A stretch of 63,201 nt of DNA, the filler included, from Collodictyon triciliatum (lineage: Eukaryota): assembly GCA_043381765.1 (NCBI GenBank). It is 4 parts of 4 records of this genome, joined end to end, with 100 filler letters (N's around TTAATTAATTAA, not from the genome) between each part and the next. Parts side by side here need not be neighbours in the genome. Positions count along the whole stretch, not along the records: positions 21,874 to 43,631 come from JBHJMP010001177.1; 3 more parts are not named here. The stretch is one strand, 5' to 3'. Made by a program: the position numbers and the translations under genes. Position 1 is the first letter of the stretch; each line of letters begins with the position of its first letter. Below the pieces are notes generated by a model. It saw nothing but the letters and a program-made list of their open reading frames with translations, was not told where the DNA came from and did no database searches. Of the stretch, positions 38,845 to 40,027 are shown one piece after another.

Positions 38845-40027
38845 ATGAGCCGACCAGAGAAGCCTACAAAGCTTCCTTGCGTCCTTATTTCTCAGCGTCT
38901 TGTGGTTGTGGAGGGAATCCAGGAGCAACGCGAGTGCCTTAGCAGCGATTGGGCGAGCGTCTTTTCAGCCTTGGGTGTTCTTCCAGTCCCGCTCCTTGTT
39001 GGACTCCGCCAAGGGACTGCAGACAACTTTCGCTTGGTTGCAAGAAGCTACCTGGACTCCTTTAAGCCCGTGGGGATCATTTTGAGTGGCGGGAACGACA
39101 TTGCTTCTGTGTCTCCAGAAAACACACAGTCTCTTCTGCGGGATGAGTTTGAGTTGGCTTTCTTGCACGAGGCTATGGCAGCGAATGTTCCTGTCCTTGG
39201 GGTGGGTCTGGCAATTGCACCTATGAAAACCATTGAGGATGATATAATTATACAACCATAAACGATATTGCATAAGTATTCCTTACACATAATGAAATAG
39301 ATATATGCAAAGGCGAGCAAAAATACATCAATAAATCAGATAAAAAGAAATCGAGAAATCAACATTCGTTATAAATTATCTGAAATAAAGGGTGAGTGAG
39401 AGTGTGCGCACTTTAATGTTTCTTTTCAGGTATGCCGTGGCATGCAACTCTTGGCTCATTATGCTGGCTTCACACTCGCGCGGTGCGCTGGGCATGTGGC
39501 TACATCCCATGAATTGCAAGTGGTTGGGAAAAGCGTATTGTTTGATGCCTGGATTTGTGCAAATCCTAGCCTTCAAGTCAATTCGTTCCACAACTGGGCC
39601 GTTTTGTGGGAAGATGCCTCTGCCAGAGACAAAGAAGGCCCAACACCAACCGACAGCTTCGAGCCTATCTTTGTGGCTGGTGAGCCCACCAAAAAGGTGT
39701 GTGTGCCTATATCGAATTCGCCGTAATTGTCAGTGATCCCCGCTTGACTTTGTACTCTCTTCCATTACATAGATTTATATTCTGATACCTTTAAATATAT
39801 GCGAAATATTTTAATTCGATAGCATACTTCAAAACCGCACACTTTTTTTTTCCAAAAACAATAATTACCTATTTATAACAGTATGTATATATTGCAAGGT
39901 TTTAGAGGCGTTTGTCCACAGAGACAAAAAGGTTATTGGAGTTATGTGGCACCCTGAAAGGTCGAGTGGGGCTGCATTTCATGCTGATTTGGCATTGATG
40001 CGGGCTCTATTTTCGTTAGATACTTGA
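38845..40027 (+). CDS. Class I glutamine amidotransferase (peptidase C26), gamma-glutamyl-CDP-amidate hydrolase (Cj1417)-like; 3 exons, 250 aa
   Basis: Exons 38845-39201, 39430-39696 and 39899-40027 join in phase 0: VLISQRL..QEQRECLSSDW..GIILSGGND..RDEFE..PVLGVCRGMQLLAHY..CAGHV..HE..VNSFHNWAV..VLEAFVH..IGVMWHPER. The Cys-His-Glu triad is intact. Confidence 0.9.

Follow-up and report, generated by a model that had tools for sequence, protein, structure and literature searches.

The presence of an intron-bearing gene for a class I glutamine amidotransferase (GATase) in the protist Collodictyon triciliatum raises the question of whether Cj1417, a hydrolase of the bacterial phosphoramidate pathway, has a counterpart in a eukaryote, and what such a counterpart would make. 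The Cj1415-Cj1418 enzymes of Campylobacter jejuni produce CDP-phosphoramidate 3'-phosphate from glutamine, ATP and CTP, the subsequent transfer requires Cj1421/1422 (PMC11800397, PMC3907429), glutamine is phosphorylated on its amide by Cj1418, a PPDK-like kinase (PMC6482885, PMC10971088), and the pathway runs in the order kinase, cytidylyltransferase, hydrolase (bioRxiv 10.1101/2024.11.05.622173). An unmethylated form is also produced by C. jejuni (PMC9561416). The glutamine-kinase pathway to phosphoramidate has been characterised in Campylobacter alone: a 2019 review has the modification identified in that genus only (PMC6429109), and a 2022 review describes the kinase as specific to C. jejuni (PMC9561416). 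No eukaryotic case of a glutamine kinase or of phosphoramidate was found in the literature searched, which covered few subscription papers.

The hydrolase gene, its transcripts and its setting

The window, that is, the whole stretch of DNA analysed (63,201 nucleotides, filler included), joins several contigs of the C. triciliatum assembly at runs of N (21774, 43632 and 61429). The eukaryotic assembly that was searched comprises 75 Mb in 14,576 contigs, and the hydrolase gene, located on contig C1177, appears in it as a single copy. The gene occupies positions 38845-40027 of the plus strand and consists of three exons and two GT-AG introns, which together encode an open protein of 250 residues (Table 1), with a GC content of 0.515 in the coding sequence and 0.32 in the introns. 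No N-terminal hydrophobic stretch was found in the protein, which points to a presumably cytosolic location.

Table 1. Features of the hydrolase gene and of the surrounding window.
Feature	Positions	Strand	Observations
Glycosyltransferase family 92 open frame	6105-7802	-	565 codons; on a different contig of the window
Exon resembling a MOB1-family protein	13792-14226	+	Presumed assignment, by motif
Sulfotransfer_2 open frame	22171-23712	+	513 codons; contig C1177, ~15 kb from the hydrolase gene
Ribosomal protein uS2 (RPSA) gene	33092-34241	-	Contains introns; marks the contig as nuclear
Unbroken open frame just upstream of the hydrolase gene	35660-38470	+	936 codons; hydrophobic stretches at both ends; no Pfam match; unusual for an intron-rich genome
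Hydrolase exon 1, residues 1-119	38845-39201	+	Motifs QR, E-x-RECL, W36, SGGND, RD-x-E; NF045546 51.8 bits, E 1e-13; run X3 over 38839-39073
Hydrolase intron 1, 228 nt	39202-39429	+	GT-AG, phase 0; one RNA contig; its loose end of 15 letters at 39429 is identical to the end of exon 1
Hydrolase exon 2, residues 120-208	39430-39696	+	Cys121 nucleophile at 39433-39435; GH-V and NSFH motifs; NF045546 25 bits
Hydrolase intron 2, 202 nt	39697-39898	+	GT-AG, phase 0; RNA joint in X1 and X2; position at which two D. rotans isoforms diverge
Hydrolase exon 3, residues 209-250 and stop	39899-40027	+	His226 at 39950-39952; Glu228 at 39956-39958; NF045546 22.7 bits

From the genome sequence alone, 15 splice combinations are open. 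The exact 202-nt skip of intron 2, with GT..AG ends, is found in contigs of two of the four runs (X1 and X2, both from one study and presumed by guess to be RNA), and these RNA contigs settle the splicing of intron 2, while intron 1 is weakly supported by one contig. A lake-water metatranscriptome contig from a further run (X3) covers the start of the gene with two differences, both synonymous. Run X4 and small-share pieces over simple repeats were discarded as evidence of transcription. One X2 contig skips 59 nt within exon 3 (39961-40021) at non-canonical ends, probably as a library artefact, and an X1 contig differs from the genome by amino-acid changes at codons 231 and 249.

Cj1417-type and PuuD-type features of the protein

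The catalytic triad (C121, H226, E228) aligns to invariant columns, as in class I GATases of the peptidase C26 family, and is accompanied by the motifs ISQRL (residue 15), RECL (29), SGGND (81), RDEFE (99), GHVATSHE (140), NSFHN (170) and WHPE (225). When the exons are scanned singly, Pfam PF07722 matches on consecutive parts of the model with 19.3 and 19.9 bits, each a little below its gathering score of 20.5. The clean three-exon, 250-residue class I GATase with an intact triad that the original prediction described is borne out, with RNA for both introns, weakly for the first.

The best NCBIfam match on all three exons is NF045546, gamma-glutamyl-CDP-amidate hydrolase (Table 1), and the exons give no match to the PuuD model NF008471 at E<=1. 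The exon scores for NF045546 sum to ~100 bits and the curated cut-off of 250 bits is not reached; five operon-encoded bacterial homologues likewise fall under this cut-off (105-186 bits), so that the model is narrow. The spacing between the CRG and NSxH motifs is 49 residues in the Collodictyon protein, compared with 37-47 in 46 of the 47 module-type sequences that contain both motifs (71 in the remaining one) and 57-66 in PuuD-like sequences (the 7 of 18 in which both motifs were found), and the long PuuD insert after the nucleophile helix is absent. In an alignment of 51 module-type and 18 PuuD-like sequences, the hydrolase keeps 11 of the 16 module-specific diagnostic columns versus 2 of the 13 PuuD-specific ones; the five changed module-specific columns include D33 to S and N230 to S. 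Its identity to Escherichia coli PuuD is 22%.

Phylogenetic placement was examined in a quick tree of 123 sequences and a bootstrap tree of 36, an author-chosen subset, neither of which includes C. jejuni Cj1417. In both trees the hydrolase is nested among the GATases of bacterial module operons (support for the module clade 91/93), and it pairs with its Diphylleia rotans orthologue at 100/99. Forcing the hydrolase to group with PuuD gives a likelihood 17.5 lnL units worse (p-AU 0.042), which is a marginal rejection. The NF045546 scores (~100 versus 250), the five differing columns of 16 and the marginal AU value were all counted against a Cj1417-type assignment.

For the D. rotans orthologue, structure prediction (pLDDT 92.9) gives a C26 fold, whose nearest solved structures are SpuA (E 3e-14) and PuuD (E 8e-14), with TM values of 0.75-0.78. 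Since no Cj1417-type structure appeared in a sequence search of the PDB, this ranking of folds cannot discriminate between the two types. With PuuD and SpuA, whose chemistry is gamma-glutamyl amide hydrolysis, the Collodictyon protein shares the triad and, judged by the model of its orthologue, the C26 fold, but it differs in identity (~20-26%), clade and diagnostic residues. With Cj1417, in a comparison made through the NF045546 HMM and operon-encoded homologues rather than the C. jejuni sequence itself, it shares the triad, the subfamily motifs, the lack of the PuuD insert and the co-occurrence with a PRK05849 kinase and a nucleotidyltransferase; it is unlike Cj1417 in being eukaryotic, in having two introns and two short inserts within its 250 residues, and in having unclustered partner genes. 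These comparisons support the Cj1417 type over the PuuD type, as the original prediction had it, and the protein falls with operon GATases instead of generic gamma-glutamyl hydrolases.

Partner enzymes and their bacterial relatives

The original prediction had placed the pathway partners outside the window and had regarded a genome devoid of glutamine kinase or cytidylyltransferase homologues, combined with an enzyme inactive on the CDP-amidate, as evidence against it; both homologues are present elsewhere in the genome. The Cj1418-type kinase lies on contig C7436 (L064:3183-354, minus strand), where five exons with four GT-AG introns give 645 open codons, and its last exon is found on C6215 (L065:270-659), where it encodes the 129 C-terminal residues with the NSHMAIR histidine motif and is followed by an intron-bearing LRR gene. 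The kinase matches NF004508 with E 1.8e-53 over model positions 7-551 and 660-788, retains the family motifs, and has in common with the D. rotans kinase an insert of ~70 residues. Residues 620-723 (D. rotans numbering) are absent from the assembly and fall in a gap between two simple-repeat contig ends, so that the kinase gene is not whole in the assembly, a point counted against the best explanation; a weak match on C4341 (E 0.84) was rejected as the missing exon. We infer that PRK05849 corresponds to the Cj1418 family, given its domains, its place in the operons and an Atlas cluster in which Campylobacterota predominate. The search returned no solved structure of this kinase family.

The Cj1416-type nucleotidyltransferase domain (249 residues) is located on C4687, between nitrilase exons and a PP2C gene, and is 59% identical to its best match and 49% identical to a bacterial operon member (L006); one of its close matches is named L-glutamine-phosphate cytidylyltransferase by JGI. 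The exons of this domain lack a separate start codon and are in frame with the upstream nitrilase, the start of which lies beyond the end of the contig, giving 499 open codons in 10 exons with 9 GT-AG introns (L066:233-3445). According to this gene model the nucleotidyltransferase would be fused to the nitrilase, with a 9-nt first exon as the formal alternative. The nitrilase resembles N-carbamoylputrescine amidase, and a nitrilase stands beside the module in none of the 180 bacterial or viral loci examined, both of which suggest that the pathway may have been rewired. A search for PEP mutase in the same genome yielded no candidates, which argues against a phosphonate role for the nucleotidyltransferase. 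Two further matches in the genome were rejected as ordinary genes on reading their translations: C437 encodes the GATase part of a carbamoyl-phosphate synthetase that is CAD-like, and C7343 is a GDP-mannose-pyrophosphorylase-like gene.

Of the Cj1417 pathway set envisaged for the protist, the first three enzymes are thus represented, but the later MeOPN steps (3'-kinase, methyltransferase and DUF2972 transferase) were not found in the incomplete assembly. The search for a Cj1415-type CDP-amidate 3'-kinase with NF004041 gave seven candidates, among them only an ATP sulfurylase-APS kinase gene (C53, L062); both domains apparently belong to one intron-bearing gene, which is the sole APS-kinase-like sequence found and was rejected as an ordinary gene of its kind. 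Each of two single-protein queries for the module methyltransferase returned 0 candidates. For the Cj1421/Cj1422-type transferase (DUF2972, PF11186) no hit exceeded the cut-off in a search in which no positive control responded, and a match on C2341 below the cut-off (E 0.042) is a chance match to an unrelated repeat protein. Compared with the C. jejuni route (Cj1418-Cj1416-Cj1417-Cj1415 with Cj1421/Cj1422), the Collodictyon set differs, in addition, in the putative cytidylyltransferase-nitrilase fusion and in the location of its genes on separate contigs.

Kinase exon 2, searched against 1.84 billion representatives, gave 1,505 matches, the best of which is an 852-residue EukProt protein of D. 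rotans (346 bits; the next match scores 178), with 59.1% identity to the Collodictyon kinase (443/750). The D. rotans hydrolase was found with exon 2 (46% identity overall); the search with the exon 1 protein (99-315 aa), which gave 2 matches among 114 candidates, missed it. Two isoforms of this orthologue part from each other where Collodictyon has intron 2, which is read as a retained intron at a site apparently shared by both species. No D. rotans nucleotidyltransferase was found among 77 candidates, which was counted against the best explanation. No other eukaryote was recognised among 14 of the 150 kinase matches listed, those that were looked up for origin, and the ESM Atlas returned no model and only clusters that are mainly bacterial. 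The introns, the RNA and the D. rotans orthologue support the view, already part of the original prediction, that this is a domesticated bacterial gene.

The bacterial relatives were surveyed in 48 genome loci, fetched by best exon 1 match and with neighbours counted within 6 kb. A PRK05849 PEP-utiliser kinase is present in 46 of these loci, an NTP transferase also in 46 and both in 44, while an APS-kinase-like gene is present in 32, a methyltransferase in 28 and a sulfotransferase-like gene in 12; these are the genes that make up the pathway of C. jejuni. A set of high-GC metagenome operons (L164-L170), fetched through the nearest neighbour of the hydrolase, also encodes the bacterial proteins that match the kinase and the nucleotidyltransferase best. 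Together with L004, a Magnetococcales MAG, these uncharacterised operons have the order apsK-kinase-GATase-NTP transferase-(methyltransferase)-sulfotransferase, and their products are 43-44% (kinase), 50-57% (transferase) and 36-41% (hydrolase) identical to the protist proteins (those of D. rotans or Collodictyon's own). They differ in keeping the APS-kinase-like gene and often the sulfotransferase-like gene, and in having no nitrilase; the failure to find this APS-kinase-like gene in the protist was counted against the best explanation. The protist proteins group with L164-L170 and/or L004 with SH-aLRT values of 95 for the hydrolase, 95 for the kinase (FastTree) and 78 for the transferase. 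The hydrolase grouping follows from the choice of loci and the other two groupings do not; the kinase and transferase trees lack a tested outgroup as root, and the low transferase support (78) was counted against the best explanation. With all three proteins nearest to one operon clade, a single transfer is the simplest reading, and the trees suggest that one operon may have been transferred before the split of Collodictyon and D. rotans.

The module is plasmid-borne in 14 records, including a Vibrio alfacsensis plasmid (L081) and Azospirillum plasmids (L092, L093). In the Vibrio module a CDP-glycerol glycerophosphotransferase gene adjoins, and RefSeq names the hydrolase a PuuD-family protein. 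Three bacterial modules (L005, L006, L024) contain a gene that we take to be a CysQ-type 3'-phosphatase, which would be expected if a 3'-phosphorylated nucleotide were released.

A predicted three-enzyme pathway and its alternatives

The explanation favoured here, to which we assign a probability of roughly 0.7, is that the protein is a cytosolic gamma-glutamyl-(C)DP-amidate hydrolase and the last of three enzymes in a pathway acquired from one bacterial operon by a common ancestor of Collodictyon and D. rotans, its genes having since dispersed and gained introns. By their predicted activities, the kinase, the cytidylyltransferase and the hydrolase would, in that order, turn glutamine into cytidine diphosphoramidate. 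In the second step, the nucleotidyltransferase domain on C4687 would add CMP to give CDP-glutamine, and in the third, Cys121, aided by His226 and Glu228, would attack the gamma-glutamyl carbonyl and release glutamate and cytidine diphosphoramidate. The fourth step is the weakest part of the scheme: a glycan or lipid may receive the phosphoramidate from a transferase of the host, for which a LicD-type phosphotransferase using CDP donors is the most plausible candidate, and the group probably undergoes neither 3'-phosphorylation nor O-methylation. Since the searches found neither a kinase of the Cj1415 type, nor the module methyltransferase, nor a transferase of the Cj1421/22 type, MeOPN itself is unlikely as the end product; the product is likely to be an unmethylated nucleoside diphosphoramidate, for which transfer of an unmethylated phosphoramidate onto a glycan or lipid would be the likeliest use, and it may end on surface glycans.

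A parallel for such a shortened route is provided by a giant virus. Among 52 viral loci found with the hydrolase profile, one contains the module: in an IMG/VR giant-virus MAG contig (L111:5995-10565; its viral origin rests on the IMG/VR label) a single 1,276-residue open frame combines hydrolase (GATase), NTP transferase and kinase domains and has a LicD gene after it. The donors of LicD enzymes are CDP-linked. The surroundings form a glycosylation island with GT15, nucleotide-diphospho-sugar transferase, RmlD-like and sulfotransferase genes, and no APS-kinase-like gene occurs in the 12.6 kb of this locus examined. By analogy, this arrangement suggests that, inside a eukaryotic cell, the three-enzyme core could do without a 3'-kinase and pass the CDP-amidate to a LicD-type transferase. 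Scans of viral contigs and of metagenome contigs with single kinase proteins found nothing, and the profile scans gave this one viral contig. The virus was rejected as the donor: its three domains branch away from those of the protist, together with AT-rich sequences, a placement that composition may distort. A further MeOPN-like cluster is carried by a Borg archaeal extrachromosomal element, in which the trio is proposed from structure prediction to serve surface decoration (bioRxiv 10.1101/2024.11.05.622173); unlike the Collodictyon genes, it belongs to an archaeal element, is clustered and has no introns, and its function is predicted only.

Four other explanations were weighed against this pathway. 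That the three enzymes and the fused nitrilase have been rewired towards a different P-N product, such as a phosphoramidate N-substituted by a polyamine, the head group of a lipid or a small molecule used in defence, is unlikely, although the startless transferase exons in frame with an N-carbamoylputrescine-amidase-like gene, the downstream MeOPN genes not found in the genome searches and the PPDK-like N-P kinases that serve small-molecule pathways, such as TalE (PMC6482885), are all in its favour. Against it, the kinase and the hydrolase retain the motifs of the glutamine-pathway families, and the nitrilase, nowhere paired with the module in the loci surveyed, is joined to the transferase in a gene model that formally admits the short first exon. 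Quite unlikely is the possibility that the full Campylobacter-like route, with 3'-kinase, methyltransferase and a sulfotransferase-fold transferase, is present but was missed, or that a host APS kinase and sulfotransferases fill the late steps; this concerns the fourth step only and is compatible with the first three. In its favour, matches in the fragmented, intron-rich assembly are to single exons only, the late genes are present in the nearest bacterial operons, and in the host C53 encodes an APS kinase domain and the contig of the hydrolase itself contains a Sulfotransfer_2 gene; but the same searches found the kinase and the transferase easily, with E values down to 1e-53, and returned for the late steps the NF004041 and methyltransferase results given above.

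A general gamma-glutamyl hydrolase of the PuuD/SpuA kind, active in polyamine or glutamine turnover, with partners that are relics or have other roles, is decidedly improbable. The closeness of the D. rotans model to the SpuA and PuuD folds, the polyamine-metabolism family of the fused nitrilase and the missed NF045546 equivalog cut-off would fit it; however, the fold ranking is uninformative for the reason given, sequence, diagnostic columns and trees all set the protein apart from PuuD, and hydrolase and kinase have both been retained in two species at ~50-60% identity. Bacterial contamination or misassembly, of negligible probability even though the close relatives are bacterial or without name save for one species, is refuted by the spliced transcripts of the hydrolase gene, and is further contradicted by the GT-AG introns that each of the three genes contains, by neighbouring eukaryotic genes with introns (ribosomal S2, LRR, PP2C) and by D. 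rotans orthologues with a shared intron position.

The favoured three-enzyme pathway leads to a broader proposal, which we put forward tentatively and at somewhat less than even odds: Diphylleid protists (CRuMs) may convert glutamine to cytidine diphosphoramidate and place P-N phosphoramidate groups on their own glycans or lipids by means of a eukaryotic CDP-donor transferase, with the fused nitrilase adding a step unknown in bacteria. If true, this would be the first eukaryotic glutamine-kinase pathway, to which the giant virus, with its three-enzyme polypeptide beside LicD, offers an independent parallel. The seeming absence of the late Campylobacter steps points to a different transfer step, and the culturable cells and three soluble enzymes make the scheme open to testing. 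The enzyme kind is known but its domain of life is new: the gene is real, spliced and conserved, and forms part of a pathway that is truncated and altered. With a domesticated, intron-bearing version kept by two species of a deep-branching eukaryotic lineage, the range of P-N glycan or lipid chemistry would come to include eukaryotes, and these genes would be a clear case of a multi-gene bacterial pathway outliving the break-up of its operon.
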